This document shows, piece by piece, positions 1,306-61,277 of a stretch of 64,000 bases of DNA (its first letter is position 1; each line of letters opens with the position of its first letter). The notes beneath the pieces are model-generated. The model was given only the letters and a program-made list of their open reading frames with translations. It searched no databases and was not told where the DNA came from. The stretch is from Escherichia phage APCEc01: sequence record NC_029091.1; one strand, written 5' to 3'. A program made the translations under genes and the position numbers.

Positions 1306-1827
1306 ATGGCACACTTTAACGAATGTTCACAACTTATTTCTGGTGTTGATAAAGCGGAAGAAGCTTATTTTAATGCTCTGATTCACGAAGATAAAGACCC
1401 ACTGCAGGTAATGCTTGATATGCAGAAATCTTTACAGGTTCGTCTGGCAAATGACAAGCCTGAACATAACAAACATCCTGATGAATTGGCCACTGCTGGT
1501 GATGTTGTTGATTGGCTGCGTAATCAGAAAGATTATATTGATGATGAATTCCGTGAACTGCTGACTTCACTTGGCGGTATGAGCAATGGTGAAAAAGCCG
1601 CCAGCAGTGTATGGAAGCCGTGGAAGGCACAACATGCTGAATATCGAAATCGTCGTATCGATGAACTGTCTCCTGAAGACCAGCTTGAAATTAAATTTGA
1701 AATGATTGATATTCTGCATTTCGTTCTAAATATGTTCCAAGGTCTAGGTCTTTCGGCTGAAGAAATCTTTAAACTTTACTACTTGAAAAACCAACACAAC
1801 TTTGAACGTCAGGATAATGGTTACTGA
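1306..1827 (+). CDS. 56: dCTP pyrophosphatase gp56 (MazG-like)
   Basis: Start MAHFNEC at ATG 1306 with RBS AAAGGA (track start 1291 is TTG); about 173 aa; matches T4 gp56 by recollection. Confidence 0.85.
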   Translation: MAHFNECSQLISGVDKAEEAYFNALIHEDKDPLQVMLDMQKSLQVRLANDKPEHNKHPDELATAGDVVDWLRNQKDYIDDEFRELLTSLGGMSNGEKAASSVWKPWKAQHAEYRNRRIDELSPEDQLEIKFEMIDILHFVLNMFQGLGLSAEEIFKLYYLKNQHNFERQDNGY

Positions 1828-1872
1828 TTAAGTTATAAATACACCTGTAATTAAACAACAAAGGAGTTAATT

Positions 1873-2653: not shown

Positions 2654-2829
2654 ACAAGATAGTTAAATGGTTTAAAAGCTGGGACGATGGTGTCGGTCCA
2701 GAAGATTGGCTGGATGTTCTTGAAGAGAATATGGCTAAAGAATTCAAGAAACATGAAGAAAAGCTCGTCGAAGATGAAGGCGGACGTATTGTAAAACTTT
2801 ATATGGGTGAACCATCGAGGAAATTATAA
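2650..2829 (+). CDS. hypothetical small protein
   Basis: 59 aa; ATG overlaps upstream stop (ATGA). Confidence 0.45.
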   Translation: MNKIVKWFKSWDDGVGPEDWLDVLEENMAKEFKKHEEKLVEDEGGRIVKLYMGEPSRKL

Positions 2830-3293
2830 TGGATGCTATGCTATTTAAAATGTATTTGCTTGAAGCCAAGTCATTTAAACATATACCAGTGGAAGATAAG
2901 ACTCCACTAGAAATAGCTATTCTCATTAACAAAAGTCTAAATAATCCGCAATATATCATAGAAGAATTCTGCAAATTGCAGATTCCTAAAGGTTACAAAA
3001 TTCGTGTAGAGCGAGTTGGAGCTATTACTCATTCTAAAAATTCTCCGTTTAGTCTTGAAGAAGGCATAAAGGACTTAGGTTATGAATCTACGGAAAATGC
3101 CGTTTATGTGAATCCAGAAAAGCGTTTAGATTTGTTTGAAAAGCGAGACCATAAGTATTTTGCCAAAAAATACTTTATTACATCATTAGCAGATTTAATC
3201 CATTTGCAACGAGCTATTTGGAAATTTTTTAAGACAAAAGGTGTAGCGCTAGAAACATTCTCTGAGCAGCCTAGTTTTTATTTAGGTGAATAA
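2829..3293 (+). CDS. hypothetical protein
   Basis: 154 aa; ATG overlaps upstream stop; no motif recognised. Confidence 0.5.
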   Translation: MDAMLFKMYLLEAKSFKHIPVEDKTPLEIAILINKSLNNPQYIIEEFCKLQIPKGYKIRVERVGAITHSKNSPFSLEEGIKDLGYESTENAVYVNPEKRLDLFEKRDHKYFAKKYFITSLADLIHLQRAIWKFFKTKGVALETFSEQPSFYLGE

Positions 3294-3294
3294 T

Positions 3295-3474
3295 ATGGAC
3301 CTTATGAGTATGTTTGACGAGCCTGAAGTTGAGGCTCCTAAAGTGCATCGTAGTGAACTTGTTGATGAACTAGATAGTATTATACAACGACATGGCTTTA
3401 GTTTACCTGTCGAAGCTCTGAAAGACCTTGCCTCTTATTATGACGACCCTCCACCATGGAGTCCTTGGAAATGA
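3295..3474 (+). CDS. hypothetical small protein
   Basis: 59 aa from ATG 3295 (track start 3286 is GTG). Confidence 0.4.
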   Translation: MDLMSMFDEPEVEAPKVHRSELVDELDSIIQRHGFSLPVEALKDLASYYDDPPPWSPWK

Positions 3475-3635
3475 AAGAGAAATTTAAAGAGAAATTCTTA
3501 CTAGAAATCAAGGAAAAAGACTTTGAGACATGGTATCGAATGGTGAAAGGGTTGACATTGCTTTTTAAAGCATCCTTATTCATGTTAAAACAACCTGGTC
3601 CTGATGGTCCTTTAGTAGGAAAGCTTAAAAAGTAG
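3471..3635 (+). CDS. hypothetical small protein
   Basis: 54 aa; ATGA overlap with upstream ORF; below the ORF-track length cut-off. Confidence 0.35.
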   Translation: MKEKFKEKFLLEIKEKDFETWYRMVKGLTLLFKASLFMLKQPGPDGPLVGKLKK

Positions 3636-21971: not shown

Positions 21972-22000
21972 GTTTACTTTTGCTTCAAACATGATAGTAT
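21972..22000 (+). promoter_or_regulatory. T4-type early promoter (cassette copy 1)
   Basis: AGTTTACTTTTGCTTCAAACATGATAGTATAAACCTATCAAAACAAA; nearly identical to the copy at 22293. Confidence 0.55.
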
Positions 22001-22039
22001 AAACCTATCAAAACAAAACAACCAAATTGGAGAAATAAA

Positions 22040-22255
22040 ATGTCTAAAATGAAATTAACTCAAAACACAACTACTCGTTTCGGTAAAGTTAAACCTGGTA
22101 TGAATGCTCCCCGTAAAGCACTTGTTGAAGAATTAAATTTCTTAGAAGTTGAAATCAATTCTTTAGTGGTTCGCGGTTCAAATGGACATCATTTAGAAAA
22201 GCTTCGTTCTAAAAAGGCAAAACTTATTGGCCTTATTAAAGAAATGAGTTTGTAA
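22040..22255 (+). CDS. hypothetical basic small protein
   Basis: 71 aa; begins MSK like MotA and shares its upstream cassette. Confidence 0.5.
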   Translation: MSKMKLTQNTTTRFGKVKPGMNAPRKALVEELNFLEVEINSLVVRGSNGHHLEKLRSKKAKLIGLIKEMSL

Positions 22256-22292
22256 ATTTTACCAGGGCTTTTGAAAAAGAGCCCAAAATAAA

Positions 22293-22321
22293 GTTTACTT
22301 TTGCTTCAAACATGTTATTAT
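22293..22321 (+). promoter_or_regulatory. T4-type early promoter (cassette copy 2, motA)
   Basis: AGTTTACTTTTGCTTCAAACATGTTATTATAGACCTATCAAAACAAA. Confidence 0.55.
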
Positions 22322-22358
22322 AGACCTATCAAAACAAATACTAATTTGGAGAAATAAA

Positions 22359-22991
22359 ATGTCTAAAGTTACTTACATCATCAAAGCTTCTGAAAACGCT
22401 CTGAATGAAAAAACTGCTGCAATAATGGTTTATATCATTAAGAACAACTTCACCACTGCTGCCAATGTCCGTGAAGCTCTGGAAGCAGAATACAATGCAT
22501 CGGTTGTTAACTCTAACATTGGCGTATTGATTAAGAAAGGTTTAGTCGAAAAATCTGGTGATGGACTTATAGCAACAGGCGAAGCAATGGATATTATCCA
22601 AAAAGCTGCAGACCTCTTTGCCCAAGAAAATGCTCCAGAACTTCTTCAGAAACGTAACACTAGAAAAGCACGTGGAGTTACTCCTGAAATGCATGAATTA
22701 GCAAACTTTGTTTTTGAAAATATTAAAGATAAAGTTGAAGTTAAAGAAATTGGCGAAAACCGTAGTAACTTGGAAGTTCGATTTGCAAAACGAGTTCTAG
22801 GTATTCGTCAGATCGAAATTCGTCGAAATGGTTCTCTTAGAATCTTTGCATACAACATGTCAGAAACTGAATCAAAGCTGTTTACTTCTCTTGAAAATGA
22901 TGTTAAGATTAAGATCGGTGGTAAATATACTTACATTGACTTCCCTAATGTGTCCAAAGAAATCATTACCCTTGTAACTAACGTACTGTGA
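22359..22991 (+). CDS. motA: middle-transcription activator MotA
   Basis: 210 aa; MSKVTYIIKAS and VVNSNIGVLIKKGLVEKSGDGLI match T4 MotA. Confidence 0.9.
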   Translation: MSKVTYIIKASENALNEKTAAIMVYIIKNNFTTAANVREALEAEYNASVVNSNIGVLIKKGLVEKSGDGLIATGEAMDIIQKAADLFAQENAPELLQKRNTRKARGVTPEMHELANFVFENIKDKVEVKEIGENRSNLEVRFAKRVLGIRQIEIRRNGSLRIFAYNMSETESKLFTSLENDVKIKIGGKYTYIDFPNVSKEIITLVTNVL

Positions 22992-23001
22992 GGAATACAT
23001 A

Positions 23002-23331
23002 ATGAATAAGCTGAATATTATTAACGAACTTCGTAAATGTGCAGAACCTACTCAGGAAGGATGGGATATTTGGTACCACGGGGCTTATTTAGGGACAATT
23101 GTAAAGATTAAAGCAGGCCAATATACGGTTATTCGTGAAAATAATGACGCGCCATTTGGCCTTCGTAAAAACTACATGGCAGCGATCAGTTCATTTGTTG
23201 ATGCAGCTTACGAAATCTATAAAGAAGATTATAAAGAATACCAGCAGTCACAACCGGTTATTCGTTCGATTGGTGTAAATAAACAAGCACAAAAATCTAT
23301 TTGGCAACGTATTAAAGGATGGTTTAAATGA
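23002..23331 (+). CDS. hypothetical protein
   Basis: 109 aa; RBS GAGGAA. Confidence 0.5.
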
Positions 23332-23789
23332 AAACTTTTAAAGAACGTTTAGCTCTGTTAGATAAAGCTTTGTCGCGTGAGACTCCGGAAAGTCTGGCTG
23401 CTAAATTAGCTTCTTACGGCGGTGAATATACAGAACAAAATGTTTTAGATGAAGTTCCTGAAATCTGTTGGCAGACTGTGTATTGGGATGAAAACCAAAA
23501 GTATCAACGACGAATTGTCTGTGCAGCCAACCGTTTTAAATTAAAAGATGGACGAACTCTTATTATTCCAGGTGCTCGTCATTATTCTAAAGATATGGCA
23601 GAAGTTTTAGATGTAGTTAAACCTCAATTAGTTACTCAACAAGTTTGTGATGATGACCAAGGGTTTATTGACCAATATAGTAATTATTGGACACGTGAAG
23701 AAGCAATGATTATTGCAACTTACGCTGGACAAGTACGTATTGAACGTGGTGGTAATGAAAAAGAACTTTATTCTGAGGACCTTTACTAA
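23328..23789 (+). CDS. hypothetical protein
   Basis: 153 aa; ATGA coupled. Confidence 0.5.
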
Positions 23790-24070
23790 TGAATCTTAAA
23801 CAACTCCAGATTGATGCTATTGAAGCCCACATTAATCATATCAAACGCCTGAATGCTATGATGGAAGAAAATTATGGTATGTATGCTAATCAGCCTGGTT
23901 GGGATGCTTTAGACCATCCTTATTTGGTTAATTTATGTAAAGGTGATACGTTAGCAATTATTCGTGATGGGTTAAAACCTTTCTTGCGCGACATGTATAT
24001 TAAAATGAACGAAGAAATTATTAGCTCGTTTCAATATCAATTAAGGAAATTAGACGATGAGAATAATTGA
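23789..24070 (+). CDS. hypothetical protein (Arn-like position and size)
   Basis: 93 aa between motA and asiA; T4 Arn is 92 aa; not confirmed by sequence. Confidence 0.35.
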   Translation: MNLKQLQIDAIEAHINHIKRLNAMMEENYGMYANQPGWDALDHPYLVNLCKGDTLAIIRDGLKPFLRDMYIKMNEEIISSFQYQLRKLDDENN

Positions 24071-24272
24071 TTCTAAAGCAGATTATTTTAATTCTGTTAA
24101 TGATAAGAATAAAGCTTTAATTCGTCACTTTATTACTGAGATGGGATATACTGACTCTAAAGATTTGAAAGAGCACATTATCGAATGTTCTGTGGCTAAA
24201 AAGTTTTCTTTCACAGACAAATGTTTAAATGAGGTTATAAATCATTATGAACAATCTTGTAGCAAAACATGA
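24057..24272 (+). CDS. hypothetical protein
   Basis: 71 aa, overlapping its neighbours. Confidence 0.4.
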   Translation: MRIIDSKADYFNSVNDKNKALIRHFITEMGYTDSKDLKEHIIECSVAKKFSFTDKCLNEVINHYEQSCSKT

Positions 24273-24655
24273 TTTCAATAAGGCTTCCGTCCATAAGGAC
24301 AAGAAGAAATCAGAACTTCAATCTAAACGTAAACAAAAACATAAGGGTAAAGACTATGCTTACTAAAATCAAAGAAAATCCTGCCACTGAACTTGTTATT
24401 CGATGCGAAGAACTTGCAGAGCTTTATCAGGTTAACAGAGAAGTGTGTCGTAGTGTTATCGTAGATATGGAAGACGAAGTATGTTCTCGTATTCCTTTTA
24501 GTGTTGATTTCAATCACATGAAGCCTGGTGAAATCACTATCGTCTTTGGTTCTGACTATACTGAAGAACGGGCTCTTAATGCCCTAGAATATGAAATGTC
24601 ATTCTTTGACATACAGGACTACATTGATAGTTATAAGGAACAATATGAGTCATAA
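24269..24655 (+). CDS. hypothetical protein
   Basis: 128 aa from the coupled ATG at 24269; alternative start 24356 gives 99 aa. Confidence 0.4.
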   Translation: MISIRLPSIRTRRNQNFNLNVNKNIRVKTMLTKIKENPATELVIRCEELAELYQVNREVCRSVIVDMEDEVCSRIPFSVDFNHMKPGEITIVFGSDYTEERALNALEYEMSFFDIQDYIDSYKEQYES

Positions 24656-24806
24656 TCTTCAGAACGTAGTAGAGGCCGAACGTGAGCGTGAGGCTTTAGT
24701 CTATAATGAACTATTAGTTCAATTCTTGGTCTTACACTCGTACGAACAGGAAGACTATACCAATTACGTTAAAAGCGTAGAAAAAGCCGTTTACAATCAA
24801 CACTGA
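24645..24806 (+). CDS. hypothetical small protein
   Basis: 53 aa; RBS AAGGA. Confidence 0.35.
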   Translation: MSHNLQNVVEAEREREALVYNELLVQFLVLHSYEQEDYTNYVKSVEKAVYNQH

Positions 24807-24818
24807 TAATGGTACTAT
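24789..24818 (+). promoter_or_regulatory. T4-type early promoter for asiA
   Basis: GTTTAC, 18-nt spacer, TACTAT. Confidence 0.5.
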
Positions 24819-24852
24819 ACTCCTATCAATTAAGTGGAATGAATAAAACGTT

Positions 24853-25125
24853 ATGAATAAAGACATTGAAATCGTACGTGAAATTATTACTATTGCTTCT
24901 ATTTTGATTAAATTCTCTAGGGAAGATATTGTTGAAGACCGAGCAAGTTTCATCGGATTCTTGAATGAGATTGGAATTAAAAAAGATGGTCGGCAGCTAA
25001 ATCAGAATTCGTTCAGAAAACTAATTACAAATTTAACTGCCGAAGAAAAGAAAACACTGATTAGTGAATTCAATGAAGGTTTTGAAAATATTTATCGTCA
25101 TTTAGCGATGTATTCTAACAACTAA
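24853..25125 (+). CDS. asiA: anti-sigma-70 factor AsiA
   Basis: 90 aa; REIITIASILIKFSREDIVE and NEGFENIYRHL match T4 AsiA almost throughout. Confidence 0.95.
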   Translation: MNKDIEIVREIITIASILIKFSREDIVEDRASFIGFLNEIGIKKDGRQLNQNSFRKLITNLTAEEKKTLISEFNEGFENIYRHLAMYSNN

Positions 25126-25785
25126 TTATTTAGCCCTTCCTAGTATTCGGACCGCTTGGTTGCATATAGCCGCTAAGCGATCTTCCTCAAGTATATTATT
25201 CCCCTTATACCAATACATCGTCACAGTTCCAGCATAGATGTTATCCAAATTAAAGTATGGACAACTATACATATAAGAAAGTTCGGCAGTCTTAGATTTT
25301 GTAGGCAAAAATGCAAATTCTGATTTAGATGAGAAATGACGGCCACTTAAATGAATTATATATTCATTAGCCGTTTTATCCACCGGGAATCCACCAAGGG
25401 ACTTTTCAGAAATTGTGCTAGGTAGTTTGCCTTCATAAGCTATAAGGTCGACAAAATAATTTAAGTTTTTAGGTCTGAAAGAATACACAGCACTAAAATC
25501 TGCACCAGATGAGATATGAACTATTTGCAGTTGTTCTAGAGCCGCAGATTCAAAACGTAAAGCTCGTTCTTTTTGGATTATTTCAGTATAAGTATCATAC
25601 TTAGCTCTTACATAATAATCCAGCAAAATACTTCCTTTGTACCATATTAGTGCCATTAGGAACAAAAGAATAATTACCGCTACTCGGGACATTAAAACCT
25701 TTCCAGTAGCGTTATCTTTGAAAATACGATCTAGCAACCCAAATAGAATATCACTAAGCGAAAATGACACTTTTGGTGTTGCCAT
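25126..25785 (-). CDS. t: holin T
   Basis: 219 aa; N-terminal TM then large periplasmic domain; matches T4 holin (218 aa). Confidence 0.9.
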   Translation of the reverse strand: MATPKVSFSLSDILFGLLDRIFKDNATGKVLMSRVAVIILLFLMALIWYKGSILLDYYVRAKYDTYTEIIQKERALRFESAALEQLQIVHISSGADFSAVYSFRPKNLNYFVDLIAYEGKLPSTISEKSLGGFPVDKTANEYIIHLSGRHFSSKSEFAFLPTKSKTAELSYMYSCPYFNLDNIYAGTVTMYWYKGNNILEEDRLAAICNQAVRILGRAK

Positions 25786-25794
25786 AATACCTCC

Positions 25795-26346
25795 TTACTT
25801 AAAGATATTTATAATCGCTTTGATAATAGATTTGTTTTCAAGGTCAGGGAATTTAGGTAATTCGCCGCCAAGATGTTCATGTTTTTCTAAAAGGGCAAAG
25901 AATTTTTTGAGCTCTTTAAATTTTCGTTTTTCTTCTCTATTAGCAACCTCTGCGTCAATAAGAGAACTTAAAACACTGAATAATTTATAGAGTTCATGAA
26001 TTTTCTTATCACGTTGAACTACGCGTTTATATGCTTCATCTTCCTTCCACCCGTCGTCAGTCCAAAGGTCAAATTCACCTGGTTCTTCTGTAGTGACATT
26101 TTGAAGAGCACCTGGAGTGTCAATAACAATTTTTTGCTTATCATAAGTCCATACTGTTTTTCCGCGATGGTCTTCAACATATACCCATTCTTGCTCGCGT
26201 TCATCAAATATAACAGCATAGCCTTCTTTAGGGTCTAAAGGTTTTTTTGGTGTCGAATGAGCCGGAAATCCTACGCCTTTTAATGGTTTATAATTTTCTT
26301 CTTTGTAAAATTCTTTAGTGTCAAAATAATAGTGATAGAGTTTCAT
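25795..26346 (-). CDS. 38: gp38, distal long tail fiber assembly chaperone (T4-type)
   Basis: 183 aa; MKLYHYYFDTKEFYKEENYKP and FALLEKHEHLGGE match T4 gp38. Confidence 0.9.
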   Translation of the reverse strand: MKLYHYYFDTKEFYKEENYKPLKGVGFPAHSTPKKPLDPKEGYAVIFDEREQEWVYVEDHRGKTVWTYDKQKIVIDTPGALQNVTTEEPGEFDLWTDDGWKEDEAYKRVVQRDKKIHELYKLFSVLSSLIDAEVANREEKRKFKELKKFFALLEKHEHLGGELPKFPDLENKSIIKAIINIFK

Positions 26347-26356
26347 ATTATAAAAA

Positions 26357-26370
26357 GGGACCGAAGTCCC
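26357..26370 (-). terminator. hairpin between genes 37 and 38
   Basis: GGGACTTCGGTCCC on the minus strand, followed by a T-run. Confidence 0.5.
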
Positions 26371-26376
26371 TTCTCC

Positions 26377-29300
26377 TTATGCTAAACGAACGATATAGTT
26401 AAAAGCAACGTTTTTAACTGTGTTTTCTGTATTTCCTGTGGCATTTACAGTTATTGTATGTCCATGGGAACCAATTGCAACAGTATGAGAATGAGCACCA
26501 ATACCTACCGAATGGGTATGAGCACCAATACCCACAGTATGAGCATGGTTACCAGTAGCGCTAGTAGTTCCTGACCAACTATGAGTGTGGGCACCGTCTG
26601 AAGAAGTTTTGGCTATATTCGACCGTGCAGTAGCACCGTTCACGGTTCCAGTGAATTTAGCGTCGGCGTTTGCACCTACACTATTATATCCGTCATAGAA
26701 TATGTTATTGGATATGTCGGCTCGTATCTGAGGACCTGAACGCGCGTGTTGGTGCGCACCAGCGGAACTAGTATTACCACTCACTGTATGGTTATGGTTA
26801 CCAGTGGTATTACTGGTCTTAGTACCATAATCAAAGCTTGAAGTCGTTTTGCTACCATAATCAAAACTTGACGTATTTTTAGTACCCAAATCTGTGCTTG
26901 ATGCACTTGCACTATGGCTATGAGCCTTAACACCGTCTGCTTCTGTACTCAATACAGCACGCCCAGATGGTTTACCCTTGATAGTTTGACCACGCATATC
27001 AGGCAGAGTGCCGGAAGGATACACCGCAGCTAACTTAGGATACAAGTCAGCATCAAATGTTTGACCTTCCATTATGGCATAACCTTCAGGAGGTGTATCA
27101 GTAGGCCAAGGAATCGGAGCACCAATTGGGTAACTCGAGACAATATCCGTCTTAAGGTTATTTATTGTTGTATTCAAGTTAGCAAAATTACCAGAACCAC
27201 CAGTGATATTACCATCAGTACCGAATTGAGCATTTCCGACTTTAAGAGGTTTAGTAATATCGACAGAATCAGAGTTTAATGCAATACCATGTGAATATGT
27301 GTAGCTGTGCATACGAACGACGTTGCCGCCATCGCCAATACCTAAATACCATTTCGGAACATCTGCTTTACGTCCTTGAATGAAGTTAGAAGACTTTTGT
27401 GTTGGAGCATTTATTCTAATAGCATCTGATGCCATATTTACTGTTATGCGTTGACCAGCCGTAGTTCCAGCCGCTTCTACTTTAAATCTACCGCCGCCGA
27501 TATCTACATCATGATCCATGGAAACTTTACCATTACTTAATGTAATATAGAACGGACGTAAATTAGAAATACCACCTGATTCACCAGCATTCTGCGGAGT
27601 TGGAATAATATAAAACTTATCTTCAGAACGACGGAAAATAGCACCATATTCAGCATCGTAAATACGGAAAGCATCAGCAGTCCCGCCAATTTTAACCTGT
27701 CCGGTAATTGAGGCACCACCTTGAACAAACAATCCATTATTCATTGTAACGTTGCCAACTAGAGTGCTTAATCCGTTAACTCTAAGACTTCCGTCGGTTA
27801 TTAAGCTTCCTCTAGCATTAACCTGTCCATTGAACTGAGTTACAACAGGGCCTGTAGTTTCAGAACCGGTCGGAGCTACACGCTGCGCATAAAAATAATA
27901 ACCTTGCCCATCTGATACTTCAAAAACTGATTCACGAGATTTATCACCTGAAGCGTTAAAGGCATTACCCCACGCTTTAATAGATACATAACTTTTATTC
28001 TGGCCCGCGCGAGTACCGCCAGCCCACAGTATAGTTTTAGTGCCATCTATTGCTGTAGGAGCGTCAAGTTGAATACCATCGGGTCTAGCACCAGTAAGAA
28101 CTAACCCGTTATCAAATTTAATTCTTTGTATTGAAGATACTGTGCCGTCTGCTCTAAGATTTAATTCGTTAACCCCGGTCTTAATATTTAAAATACCGGG
28201 TTCAACAATAAGACCTTCACCCATTGAAATAGCTACTCGGCCAGTACCACGAAAATAGTGATAAAGTTTACCGTTACTGTTATAGCCAAGATGTGTTTGT
28301 CCATCGCCAGAGTTATTACCATCTATTTCGGTTCTGATAGAAACCATTGCAGAGTTTTGACCTGGTAAAATCCATGTGGCACCTTGGTCGGTACTGCGTC
28401 CAAATATGGTTTTGCTTGTGCCACGGAAACCATCGGAAGTAACAGAAGCAACAGAATAACCTCCGCCTACTAAATCAAAATTACCTTGTTTAATATATTT
28501 CAGACCAGTTACAGTGTCGCCGAGAACAAGATACTTATCGCCCATTACACCGACGTTACCATAATCACTAGACGGGAAATCTGTAGTGAATGTACCTAAT
28601 GCAAGGCTATTACGGCCAGCCATTCGGCCATCGTTACGAATACCATACTGTTTTGACTGTGGAGTATTACCTGTCCACCAAGACATTTCATCGGCTTGGC
28701 CTAATTGAGCAGTACAAAGCTCATGCCACATAGTGCCACCGGATTTGGCACGAACTCTACGAAGATAGTTTACACCATTCGTTTCACCGGTGCCCGGGTA
28801 TACATACTTAACTAATGAATCCGTATCATATACACCAAATGCTTTGCCATCGTGAATAACAGTATCAACCCCAATGCGTTTAGTTAATAACGAATCTGAT
28901 GCTAAAATACGGTTGGCTTGAAATTCACCGCCGTTTATAGAACGGAAATAGAATTCACTATTGGTAGTACTTCCTGTTCCTTGTCTAACCCTAAGACGTA
29001 TTTCACCATCAGTTGTAGTTTGAGGACGAGCATATATAACGCCACGTTCAGTGCCATCGGCATTTTCAAACCAAAGATGGGCATTTGCTGTTTCACCGGT
29101 TGAAGCTCTTGAATAAAACGAACCTTGCAATGCTCTAAAAACTTGAGCTGAAATACTACTACCAGCGGTAATCTGGCCACTTGTGGAAAAATTTCCAAAA
29201 TTGTTTATTGGTCCATTGACGCGTAAAGTTCCATCAATAGTTACATTTCCACTGATATTACCGCCAGCGGAAATGCTTAAATCGATGATATTTCCTGAAT

Positions 29301-29427
29301 CATCTTTAGTAAAAAGAGTTCTATCTTTTAAGTTTATAGCCAATTCACCTTCGGCTAATACTGAAGCAGCAGGACGTGCACCTGCGGTTTTGCTTCTTTT
29401 AAATTGTATTTGTTTTAAAGTAGCCAT
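26377..29427 (-). CDS. 37: gp37, long tail fiber distal subunit
   Basis: 1016 aa; C-terminal His boxes ([34 protein letters not shown]) typical of the T4 gp37 tip. Confidence 0.9.
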
Positions 29428-29435
29428 AAGTCCTC

Positions 29436-30101
29436 TTAATAATAGCCGAAATCTTGAACAGAATCCTTAATTACGATTTGGTCGAAACGAGGAACATGAT
29501 TAGCCTCAGACGCCGGATTCTGTGAGAAAAAGTTTGGTGCTGTTAAAGTACCAGTCATGGTATCGCCTTTACGCAATACACGGGAATTTGCGTTATCCGT
29601 AACAATATTTATTCGTCCATCAACATAATCTTTTCTTGTGAGATCATTTGCTGCAACCGGAGCAGTCATATCGCTTCTTACTTGTCCTGAAGCAGATACA
29701 ACGCCCTTTGTATTAATATCGCCATTACGTGTATTGATTACTACAGTTCTACCCGCTGTTCCTTGTGATGATTTAAAACCAATACCATACCACGAAACAA
29801 TATCAATATTTGCTGTAACAAAAGTAGCTGCATCTCCATTACCAGGATAAATACCAGATTGATTTGTATTGTTTATAGCATATGGTATTTGAACACCGCT
29901 GTTAAATGTTACCTTTGATGCATAAGTACCACCATTAGCTTTAGAAACGAAATCGTTATCAGCAGCTTGTGGTTTATTATATTCTGAATAGAGTTTAAAC
30001 GTTTTATACAGGACGTCATCACCTGCTGGCATTAAAGGGAAATTACCTTGATGCCATATAACGGCACCGCCAGTTGTACTACCAGCTTTTAAATCGGCCA
30101 T
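29436..30101 (-). CDS. 36: gp36, long tail fiber hinge
   Basis: 221 aa, same size and position as T4 gp36. Confidence 0.85.
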
Positions 30102-60951: not shown

Positions 60952-61245
60952 ATGAAATCTATGCTTCGCTTTAATGGTCAAGAACTAGTAGTTGAAGATG
61001 CTATCCCAGCGGATGATGTTTTTAACGAAGCTGTGATTGACGAATTGAATCGAGTATTCCCAGGTGCATTCCATATTGCTATGGAACCTCTTAAAAACTT
61101 TCGTGACCCTGAGCACACTGATCAAATTTTTATCGGTGTGGTGACAGGTCATTTAGAAACAGAGGTACCAATGGTCGTATTAGTTAAATACTCTAAAGAT
61201 GATACTCCATTCCGAGCACCAGCATTCCTTTCATTCCGTAAATAA
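60952..61245 (+). CDS. hypothetical protein
   Basis: 97 aa from ATG 60952 (track start 60913 is GTG in the promoter). Confidence 0.45.
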   Translation: MKSMLRFNGQELVVEDAIPADDVFNEAVIDELNRVFPGAFHIAMEPLKNFRDPEHTDQIFIGVVTGHLETEVPMVVLVKYSKDDTPFRAPAFLSFRK

Positions 61246-61254
61246 ACCCCTAAA

Positions 61255-61276
61255 GGGAGACAACGTCTCCCTTTTT
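61255..61276 (+). terminator. rho-independent terminator at the convergence of early and late units
   Basis: GGGAGACAACGTCTCCC plus TTTTT, between the alt-side ORF and the end of gene 54. Confidence 0.65.
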
Positions 61277-61277
61277 C

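Follow-up and report, generated by a model that had tools for sequence, protein, structure and literature searches.

The convergent asiA/t junction of Escherichia phage APCEc01: a compact layout, probably inherited, and its likely read-through into the opposite genes

In the genome of Escherichia phage APCEc01 (NC_029091.1), the early gene asiA and the late holin gene t converge and touch by their stop codons. This raises the question of where the transcripts that arrive from either side end, and whether the RNA of one unit interferes with the expression of the other, in particular with that of the lysis gene. We analysed a stretch of 64,000 nucleotides of this genome (hereafter the window) and compared the junction with those of related phages. 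We consider it probable that two convergent T4-like units meet here tail to tail, in an inherited compact layout, with leaky read-through into the opposite genes. The arrangement itself is already known: it is present in the reference annotation of T4 and is common to hundreds of sequenced relatives.

Two units that meet stop to stop

AsiA matches Pfam PF09010 with E = 2.4e-32 (residues 2-81 on positions 1-85 of a profile of 85) and T matches PF11031 with E = 6.8e-91 (residues 6-218 on positions 2-233 of 233); both matches cover nearly the full profile, and both proteins have the length expected for their family (about 90 and about 218 amino acids, respectively). According to a survey of the strand blocks, asiA closes an early block on the + strand (about 3691 to 25125) and t closes the late block 34-35-36-37-38-t on the - strand. 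The former is the last gene of an early unit, with a putative sigma-70 promoter of its own, and the latter the last gene of a late unit for tail fibres and lysis, with a putative late promoter, TATAAATA.

The motif upstream of asiA consists of GTTTACA, a 17-base spacer and TACTAT, with TG before the -10 element. Across seven aligned lineages, including T4, six of the seven bases of GTTTACA are invariant and the TA...T of the -10 element is nearly unchanged. The motif TATAAATA lies 21 bases upstream of the start codon of t, within the 3' end of gene 38, and is found at t in six of the seven lineages, the sequence being TATAAGT in Klebsiella phage EI. In the window as a whole it is found 6 times, against 6.9 expected by chance, so that the argument for a late promoter is one of position and conservation. 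The two motifs, both conserved in the seven lineages, face each other at a distance of about 1 kb.

At 25120..25131 the window reads aac TAA TTA ttt: the TAA of asiA (25123..25125) is immediately followed by the stop codon of t (25126..25128, a TAA that reads TTA on the + strand), and both stops together build a six-base palindrome, TAATTA. Since the spacer is 0 bases long, there cannot be a terminator between the two genes, and a transcript long enough to code for the complete protein cannot end before the junction. When 80 bases with the junction in the middle are folded, neither strand forms a strong hairpin (-11.9 and -10.6 kcal/mol), no stem with an A run upstream and a U run downstream is found in 25100..25150, and a consensus terminator scan of 22000..30000 returns no terminator-like site from 23920 to 29161. 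The features of a two-way intrinsic terminator, that is, a G+C-rich hairpin between the stops and flanking A and U runs, are absent at asiA/t.

A preliminary description of this DNA had stated that asiA (+, ending at 25125) and t (-, ending at 25126) abut without a terminator, which the contiguous TAA and TTA confirm. It also concluded that the opposing transcripts must overlap. We agree that they should, considering that conserved promoters face each other and that the best candidate stop signals, described below, are located inside the opposite gene; the overlap should amount to at least about 210 bases even if both of these embedded signals are used efficiently.

Table 1. Features of the asiA/t region and of the control junction in the window
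Feature	Position	Strand	Description
Early-type sigma-70 promoter motif	24789..24818	+	5' of asiA; consensus scan, motif only
asiA, anti-sigma-70 factor	24853..25125	+	ORF, 90 aa; Pfam AsiA; AsiA in the JK42 annotation
Hairpin B	24979..25043	-	stem-loop 25043..24990, then U6 24984..24979; inside asiA
asiA/t junction	25123..25128	.	asiA TAA, then t stop (TTA on +); spacer 0
t, T-type holin	25126..25785	-	ORF, 219 aa; Pfam Phage_holin_T; JK42 annotation
C-rich, G-poor RNA (rut-like composition)	25139..25255	+	untranslated, just after the asiA stop
Hairpin A	25149..25183	+	24-58 bases 3' of the asiA stop codon; falls within the holin codons for ..DRLAAICNQAVR..
Gene 38, tail fibre assembly	25795..26346	-	ORF, 183 aa; Pfam Caudo_TAP
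Late promoter motif TATAAATA	25806..25813	-	pattern search, motif only
37-38 spacer hairpin	26347..26372	-	AAGGGAC-UUCG-GUCCCUU then UUUAUAAU; terminator-like on the late strand
Control convergent junction	61246..61277	.	32-base spacer with a canonical two-way terminator

Two-way intrinsic terminators are the usual occupants of convergent junctions. In the window, a survey of the strand switches finds one true convergent junction besides asiA/t, and it contains such a terminator (AAAGGGAGAC-AAC-GTCTCCCTTT plus TT, A-rich upstream; -12.8 and -15.6 kcal/mol). The genes that flank it match phrog_1739 and the phrog_45 tail-tube family (320 aa); judging from position and length, they are probably the equivalents of T4 alt.-3 and gene 54. 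By contrast, asiA/t has neither a spacer nor a hairpin flanked by A and U runs: the usual terminator between convergent units is missing because the stops of asiA and t touch.

The junction in related phages

The window belongs to a Mosigvirus. Its nearest relative in GenBank, Shigella phage JK42, is 99.7% identical over the 1.4-kb stretch compared, and its asiA and t are annotated in the same way. In the T4 reference (NC_000866.4), t (160221..160877) and asiA (160878..161150) are also separated by a gap of 0, as they are in a second T4 assembly. T4 shares with the window the two genes, their convergence, the zero spacer and TAATTA, the early (asiA) and late (t) promoter motifs, and the neighbours 38, 37 and the arn/motA block, while the DNA is about 73% identical, AsiA 72 to 73% and T about 75%. 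In their identification of asiA, Orsini et al. (J Bacteriol, 1993) reportedly mapped it to the end of the lysis gene t, with an early promoter upstream of it.

We surveyed 44 related loci which, with the window, give 45 junctions that encode AsiA. A convergent t follows the AsiA gene in all 45, with gaps of -4 to +26 bases: 0 in 21 cases (the window, T4 and 19 further loci), an overlap of 4 bases in 14, +8 in four, +17 or +18 in two and +26 in one. Three loci are apparent outliers, whose junction sequences begin as in the main gap groups; we read L016 as having a frameshifted or poorly aligned t end, L025 as a locus that probably ends before t is complete, and L032 as a likely duplicated segment. 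The tight junction persists down to 45% AsiA identity. It is also found in Acinetobacter phage AM101, from another subfamily, which has the TAATTA junction in common with the window, T4 and Mosigvirus OLB35. We discarded the idea that the zero gap or the TAATTA palindrome is a signal in itself, considering that the gaps of the relatives range from -4 to +26 and that the sequences differ.

The layout therefore does not look like a chance coincidence of the APCEc01 genome, being the same in JK42, T4 and other related loci, and the compact form is best explained by inheritance from an ancestor common to T4 and this phage.

Other relatives have a stop signal at the equivalent position. A hairpin lies exactly in the junction of the X20-type phages, where it is of the UUCG type, and of L021; in EnC07 the junction hairpin is made from the two stop codons, and the Acinetobacter phages have an intragenic terminator, described below. 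These are reduced or embedded forms of the two-way terminator, which occurs in full in Aeromonas phage avDM7, Serratia phage Muldoon and Pseudomonas phage PspYZU05, where it separates t from the asiA unit. Some relatives thus have a hairpin or a two-way terminator where asiA and t touch in the window, which means that a need for read-through is not conserved. The series from two-way terminator to small hairpin, stop-codon hairpin, zero gap and 4-base overlap displays the extent to which the terminator is squeezed out of the junction or into the coding sequence; it is ordered by spacer length alone and implies no direction of change.

Candidate stop signals inside the opposite genes

On the early strand, hairpin A has an energy of -15.8 kcal/mol in the window, with z = -1.8 over 91 bases. 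No U tract directly follows its stem: the tail is AUCUUCCUC, with 4 U in 9 bases. The U tract is absent in T4 as well. A hairpin is present at the same site in T4, OLB35, L040, L041, L043 and L044 (-14.5 to -22.1 kcal/mol), and a tail of five or six U is found there only in L041, L043, L044 and Acinetobacter phage AM101. In the Acinetobacter phages, the site, at the same distance from the asiA stop (24 to 58 bases), is a canonical intragenic terminator. When the codons are synonymously recoded, the fraction of sequences that fold at least as well is 0.08 for the window, 0.012 for T4, 0.002 for L041 and 0 of 500 for both L043 and L044; this control leaves out L005, L007 and L040, which were read in the wrong frame. 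In all six lineages with a correctly read frame the + strand version of the hairpin is more stable than the - strand version. In the window it is marginal (0.08 on recoding, z = -1.8); seven of 15 lineages lack it, and an eighth has a weak one (-10.1 kcal/mol). The hairpin registers of the enterobacterial and Acinetobacter-type lineages are one base apart. We regard hairpin A as a candidate leaky terminator or stabiliser of the 3' end of the asiA transcript.

The RNA of the early strand just past asiA is also C-rich and G-poor. The C/G ratio at 25139..25255 is 1.8 to 2.4 in 78-base windows, the 95th percentile of the whole window being 1.61. As a general rule, untranslated RNA is a target of Rho (review), and the composition of this untranslated asiA extension suggests that its termination may depend on Rho.

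On the late strand, hairpin B, 83 to 147 bases past the t stop, is the stronger structure: its energy is -22.2 kcal/mol (z = -3.96; none of 200 shuffles folds as well), against -15.4 kcal/mol on the + strand, and synonymous recoding gives 0.003 (L044, read in the wrong frame, is left out of this control). Its six U begin 5 bases after the stem, which is not canonical for an intrinsic terminator (0 to 2 bases). With its U6, it is strong in Mosigvirus, and OLB35 has it in identical form; in T4 it does not reach significance (0.31), and X20, EnC07 and DK-13 lack it. It is a candidate terminator for late transcripts. An Rfam search of 22000..30000 gave only a sub-threshold match to a plant microRNA precursor over hairpin B, which we attribute to chance. 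RNAalifold, applied to each strand of the 15 lineages, finds no consensus pairs, which indicates that neither embedded hairpin is universally conserved.

Further along the early strand, the hairpin in the spacer between genes 37 and 38 folds on both strands (-16.5 kcal/mol on - and -11.5 kcal/mol on + over 56 bases), and T4 has GGGGC-UUCG-GCCCC at this position. It is missed by the consensus scanner and caught by a permissive scan which, as is usual in AT-rich DNA, returns many weak candidates; it is the only clean one. This hairpin is the likely end point of antisense read-through from the early unit, the early-type signal of T4 extending over t and 38 and not over 37.

Taken together, these elements suggest the following scheme. 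Polymerase coming from either side would enter the opposite gene. On the early strand, it would be limited by hairpin A, devoid of a U tract, and then by untranslated C-rich RNA on which Rho may load, so that termination would be leaky. A dwindling share of the early transcripts would continue, as antisense RNA, through t and 38 as far as the 38/37 hairpin, while hairpin B and its U6 in asiA may halt part of the late transcripts.

Transcripts of T4 and the weight of the overlap

At its default settings, featureCounts ignores the strand of the reads. The expression data available to us all concern T4, which shares only about 73% DNA identity with the window, and one of the two studies used featureCounts at default settings (PMC9697503), while the other used a stranded library kit and does not state the strandedness option of featureCounts (PMC6024815).

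At 5 minutes, the reads per base are 5.7 for asiA, 2.3 for t and 0.53 for 38 (PMC6024815, Table S1): the density over t is about 40% of that over asiA and 4.3 times that over 38, so that it falls from asiA to t to 38. At the alt.-3/54 junction of T4, which bears a terminator, the drop in read density is 32-fold, compared to 2.5-fold at asiA/t. In a motA-amber infection, asiA, t and 38 change by similar factors (3.20-, 3.17- and 3.11-fold), whereas gene 37 changes 0.58-fold; the authors termed the rise of t and 38 unexpected (PMC6024815). In the second dataset, the RNAs of t and 38 are classed as early, those of 37, 35 and 34 as middle and that of 36 as late, while the gp38 protein is late and the T protein was not detected (PMC9697503). 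The proportionality to asiA does not hold in a host deleted for dksA, in which t and 38 are up 2.2- to 2.4-fold and asiA 1.5- to 1.6-fold (PMC6024815).

Hence early-type T4 RNA over t and 38 tracks asiA rather than gene 37, which, in so far as the counts are unstranded, indirectly fits leaky early read-through; read-through is what we infer from these counts. Should they instead distinguish the strands, what is seen early over t and 38 would have to be sense RNA, and a different explanation would be required.

Such an explanation can be formulated. Both transcripts may terminate efficiently just inside the opposing genes, at hairpin A with the help of Rho and at hairpin B, so that there would be a 3' overlap of about 210 bases and no long antisense RNA, and the early t/38 signal of T4 would be sense RNA from an unrecognised early or MotA-independent promoter. 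Both hairpins do fold somewhat better than their shuffle or recoding controls, the Acinetobacter phages have a canonical terminator at the site of hairpin A, and the library of PMC6024815 was stranded. However, a U tract is missing from hairpin A both in the window and in T4, and the U run of hairpin B is 5 bases off the stem. There are sigma-70-like matches on the - strand near 38 and t (26480..26453, 26354..26326 and 25382..25355), but such matches occur at the level expected by chance (26 found, 26.1 expected from shuffled sequence). A sense promoter upstream of 38 would also give the wrong polarity, since the signal declines from asiA to t and from there, by a factor of 4.3, to 38; in the motA-amber infection, t and 38 respond by the same factor as asiA; and gp38 is classed as late and T is undetected, although both RNAs are classed as early. 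We consider this explanation quite unlikely.

It may also be that the terminator-less junction is kept by selection, the read-through RNA having a regulatory job. Early antisense RNA over t could delay or limit holin synthesis and so help to set lysis timing, or late transcription through asiA could help to shut off AsiA, in either case by RNA pairing or by collision of polymerases. Holin dose is a known determinant of lysis timing, which counts for this proposal, as do the conservation of the tight junction to 45% AsiA identity while other convergent junctions keep their terminators, the dedicated promoters facing each other about 1 kb apart, and the substantial amount of early-type RNA over t in T4, about 40% of asiA density. 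On the other hand, little antisense RNA should remain once late promoters are active (from about 5 to 7 minutes) and the t message accumulates, and lineages that block read-through are viable (X20-type phages, L021, the Acinetobacter phages and the distant relatives with two-way terminators). We regard selected antisense control as unlikely. A more elaborate version, in which selection maintains the loss of the terminator and the holin, and lysis with it, is locked for safety or timed by a long antisense RNA covering t and 38, hairpin A tuning the passage of polymerase, would also explain the published early MotA-independent "expression" of t and 38 in T4; we consider it very improbable.

We therefore favor leaky read-through with little consequence. 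The preliminary description had suggested antisense interference between early and late transcription at the lysis gene; such interference would probably be minor, since the two classes are largely transcribed at different times, early promoters fading as late ones fire. At 37 C, late promoters switch on about 5 to 7 minutes post infection, and early transcription is already ending by 5 minutes. We judge that the effect on holin or AsiA levels is small, at most a fail-safe that silences stray early holin message; if antisense RNA did affect holin dose, which is hypothetical, it would bear on lysis timing. The abutment of asiA and t is a real feature of a compact genome layout, and probably one of low consequence.

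Mutual interference between convergent promoters has been described for pR/pL of coliphage 186 and for the excludons of Listeria, where the two promoters work simultaneously and their mutual repression was measured. As in these systems, asiA/t has promoters (here, promoter motifs) that point at each other across a stretch devoid of a terminator, and genes with opposed roles, host takeover and lysis; unlike in these systems, the promoters at asiA/t belong to different temporal classes. Another likeness is antisense read-through from a unit of the opposite temporal class in T4, where RNA of the non-coding strand comes from an unterminated neighbouring unit, and there is a literature on "anti-late RNA" of T4 from the 1970s. 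Over t, the antisense RNA is deduced here from count tables; we found no description of it in the literature searched on T4 antisense RNA and on start-site and terminator maps, and the supplement of a preprint on T4 start-site mapping (dRNA-seq) has no entries for asiA or t.

Read-through would be a simple explanation for the published t/38 anomaly of T4, which is also visible in the RNA classes of the second study. In T4-like phages, what unstranded counts register over t and 38 is probably early antisense read-through, and not early expression of the holin.

The asiA/t junction and its conservation

Bases 25120..25131 read aac TAA TTA ttt: the stop codons of the early anti-sigma-70 factor gene asiA and of the late holin gene t are in direct contact and form the palindrome TAATTA. 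That these convergent genes abut, as stated in the preliminary description, is borne out in full by the sequence, the ORFs, the Pfam matches, the annotation of Shigella phage JK42 (Mosigvirus, Tevenvirinae), which is 99.7% identical to the window across 1.4 kb around the junction and has asiA and t at identical relative coordinates, and the T4-like neighbourhood, with the tail-fibre genes 38 and 37 (-) upstream of t and an arn/motA-type early block (+) upstream of asiA. No junction hairpin is found in the 80 bases centred on the stop codons, which fold only to -11.9 and -10.6 kcal/mol, and a consensus scan returned no terminator-like site between 23920 and 29161.

Across seven aligned lineages, T4 among them, the early promoter motif is invariant at six of its seven GTTTACA positions and at the TA...T of its -10 element; the late motif is conserved in position in six of the seven, the last having TATAAGT. 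Two putative dedicated promoters of different temporal class, both identified as motif matches, thus point at one another over a distance of about 1 kb.

Features of the asiA/t region and of the second convergent junction in the window
Feature	Position	Strand	Details
Early promoter motif	24789..24818	+	T4 early pattern: GTTTACA, 17 bases, TACTAT, TG before -10
AsiA, 90 residues	24853..25125	+	Pfam AsiA, E = 2.4e-32
Hairpin B, 54 bases, inside asiA	25043..24990	-	U6 starts 5 bases after stem-loop
Holin T, 219 residues	25126..25785	-	Pfam Phage_holin_T, E = 6.8e-91
Hairpin A, inside t	25149..25183	+	24 to 58 bases past asiA stop; -15.8 kcal/mol
Late promoter motif TATAAATA	25813..25806	-	21 bases upstream of t start codon
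UUCG hairpin then U run, 37-38 spacer	26347..26372	-	also folds on + strand
Textbook two-way terminator, 32-base spacer	61246..61277	both	AAAGGGAGAC-AAC-GTCTCCCTTT plus TT, A-rich upstream

We surveyed the window, seven GenBank relatives and 37 IMG/VR loci retrieved by AsiA alignment, extending the AsiA and T matches out to the stop codons at each locus to measure the gap. The surveyed loci represent about a dozen distinct lineages, because many are near-duplicates; Acinetobacter phage AM101, from a different subfamily, is among them. At every locus, t is convergent and directly follows asiA. The gap is zero (TAATTA or TAATCA) at 21 junctions including the window, and 14 others overlap by 4 bases (CTAA or TTAA); gaps of 8 bases (EnC07-type, 4 junctions), 17 or 18 bases (X20-type, 2 junctions) and 26 bases (L021, 1 junction) also occur. 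The start of the junction sequence of three apparent outliers is identical to these gap groups; they are putatively explained by a t end that is frameshifted or aligned poorly (L016), a locus ending within t (L025) and a duplicated segment (L032). In this last locus (IMGVR_UViG_2974741249_000001, 2767..3506), the junction apparently carries tandem duplicates of the 3' parts of asiA and t, and other segments are repeated as well; the assembly may be at fault, or the duplication may be genuine.

The arrangement is already known: it is present in the T4 reference annotation (t 160221..160877, asiA 160878..161150, zero gap), with which a second T4 assembly agrees. The 1993 identification of asiA reportedly already described it.

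According to a rough gene map, the window contains only one other real convergent junction, at 61245/61278, which has a two-way terminator. This junction is flanked by a gene matching phrog_1739 and one for a 320-aa tail-tube-family protein, which are taken, by position and length, as the equivalents of T4 alt.-3 and gene 54. Equally canonical two-way terminators (-12 to -25 kcal/mol), one of them annotated as such, occupy the spacers before t in three distant relatives, Aeromonas avDM7, Serratia Muldoon and Pseudomonas PspYZU05, where asiA is followed by one or two small ORFs and 19 to 50 bases separate the last early gene from t. The X20-type, L021 and EnC07 junctions are intermediate states. 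The 17 to 26-base gap of the former two consists almost wholly of GGAGAC-CGAA-GTCTCC, whose loop is UUCG when read on the late strand and which lacks a U tract on the + strand (Serratia phage X20, 1762..1779 of its locus, L027 and L021). In the 8-base gap of Enterobacter phage EnC07, the hairpin GTAACA-tcct-TGTTAC holds both stop codons within its stem. This hairpin, at 1838..1851 of the EnC07 locus, also occurs in L017-L019, and its stem is extended by GCC/GGC.

Hairpins embedded in the coding sequences

Hairpin A, on the early-strand RNA, is made of the holin codons for ..DRLAAICNQAVR.. and a hairpin is found at the same site in T4, OLB35, L040, L041, L043 and L044 (-14.5 to -22.1 kcal/mol). 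It is missing in 7 of 15 lineages and weak in an eighth (-10.1 kcal/mol), RNAalifold gives no consensus structure over the 15 lineages, and no U tract follows the hairpin in the window or in T4. A U5-6 tract comes after it in L041, L043, L044 and AM101, and there it is a canonical intrinsic terminator encoded within t; the z-score of the AM101 fold is -3.5 for the + strand vs -1.3 for the - strand. As a control, we replaced the holin codons with random synonymous ones and scored how often the recoded sequences equalled or exceeded the stability of the native fold: the fraction is 0.08 in the window, 0.012 in T4, 0.046 in OLB35, 0.002 in L041 and 0/500 in L043 and L044. In none of these six lineages is the + fold less stable than the - fold, which is consistent with use on the asiA transcript.

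The terminator of the asiA transcript in L041, L043 and L044 (roughly 25 to 60 bases beyond the stop codon of asiA) and in AM101 (1491..1529 of its locus) has a G+C-rich stem of 9 to 12 bp, and lies wholly within C-terminal holin codons of the opposite strand, the U run corresponding to Lys-Lys codons. Compared by eye with T4 and Mosigvirus, it appears to carry synonymous changes that are compensatory.

Rho acts on untranslated RNA. The untranslated RNA just past the asiA stop is C-rich and G-poor, with a C/G ratio of 1.8 to 2.4 at 25139..25255 (the 95th percentile of the window is 1.61), a composition that would be expected of a Rho loading region. Further into t, about 215 to 250 bases beyond the asiA stop codon, is an imperfect palindrome, CGGCCACTTAAATGAATTATATATTCATTAGCCG, at 25339..25374. 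It forms a fold on either strand (-7 and -11 kcal/mol), with TTTTATCC next on the + strand, and could act as a weak second stop on early RNA that reads through.

Hairpin B, on the late-strand RNA, is more stable (-22.2 kcal/mol, z = -3.96) than all of 200 shuffles, has a recoding fraction of 0.003 and is stronger as - strand RNA than as + strand RNA. Mosigvirus OLB35 has it in identical form; in T4 the fold is not significant, and X20, EnC07 and DK-13 lack it. A sub-threshold Rfam match to a plant microRNA precursor at 24983..25056 (-), which results from this long hairpin, was rejected as chance (21 bits vs a gathering score of 60, E = 0.16). The opposing transcripts should overlap, as the preliminary description expected: even with efficient termination at both hairpins, they would share about 210 bases (24979..25183).

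Early RNA over t and 38 in T4

All the expression evidence is from T4, not from APCEc01. By default featureCounts is unstranded, and the general cDNA kit used for the RT-qPCR was presumably random-primed. That kit was used in PMC6024815, and featureCounts was run with default settings in PMC9697503.

In stranded-library RNA-seq at 5 minutes (PMC6024815, Table S1), the signals of arn, asiA.1 and asiA in the motA-amber infection are 3.20-, 2.95- and 3.20-fold those of the wild type, those of t and 38 are 3.17- and 3.11-fold, and that of 37 is 0.58-fold; the paper does not give the strandedness setting of the counts. The authors noted that t and 38 are "unexpectedly" up and late genes down, and proposed "an unusual expression mechanism" for the two genes. 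Because the fold changes are alike, the t and 38 signal behaves as the early unit ending at asiA. Wild-type mean reads per base fall from 5.7 (asiA) to 2.3 (t) and 0.53 (38), and this signal ends at the 37/38 boundary (0.57 for 37), where it coincides with the 37-38 hairpin, kept in T4 as GGGGC-UUCG-GCCCC (about 3003..3029 of the T4 locus). The consensus terminator scanner overlooked this hairpin. The drop at asiA/t is only 2.5-fold, compared to 32-fold (15.6 to 0.49 reads per base) at the alt.-3/54 junction, and motA has no significant effect on gene 54 in these data.

Probable read-through and its alternatives

We consider that the junction is probably an ordinary, conserved case of genome compaction where early and late units meet, in which termination is leaky and there is therefore some antisense read-through. 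The early RNA would be the main antisense read-through, crossing t and 38. That termination is instead efficient, and that t and 38 are genuinely transcribed early in sense, is quite unlikely: in an independent time course (PMC9697503) the RNA of t and 38 is early, that of 37, 35 and 34 middle and that of 36 late, but gp38 is a late protein and the T protein was not detected, so that early sense transcription fits poorly with the protein data as well as with the polarity of the signal. The preliminary description took the further step of proposing functional antisense interference at the lysis gene. This is possible but unsupported, and we find it unlikely, since late promoters become active about 5 to 7 minutes post-infection at 37 C, early transcription is already ending at 5 minutes, and a hairpin or terminator, whether at the junction itself or immediately beyond it, is tolerated in several lineages.

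Read-through that yields antisense RNA from T4 genes is an old observation (the "anti-late RNA" literature), and for gene 32 it is the subject of a cited title. The small additions made here, besides read-through as a simple candidate explanation for the published anomaly of t and 38, are the comparative series of junction states and the terminator-like hairpins embedded in coding sequence.

A caveat is that, in a dksA-deletion host, the T4 signal increases 2.4-fold for t and 2.7-fold for 38, about double the 1.3-fold change of asiA, and the t/asiA density ratio reaches about 0.8 to 1.1, up from about 0.4 (PMC6024815). DksA would then appear to lower read-through at asiA/t, provided that read-through is the source of the t signal.
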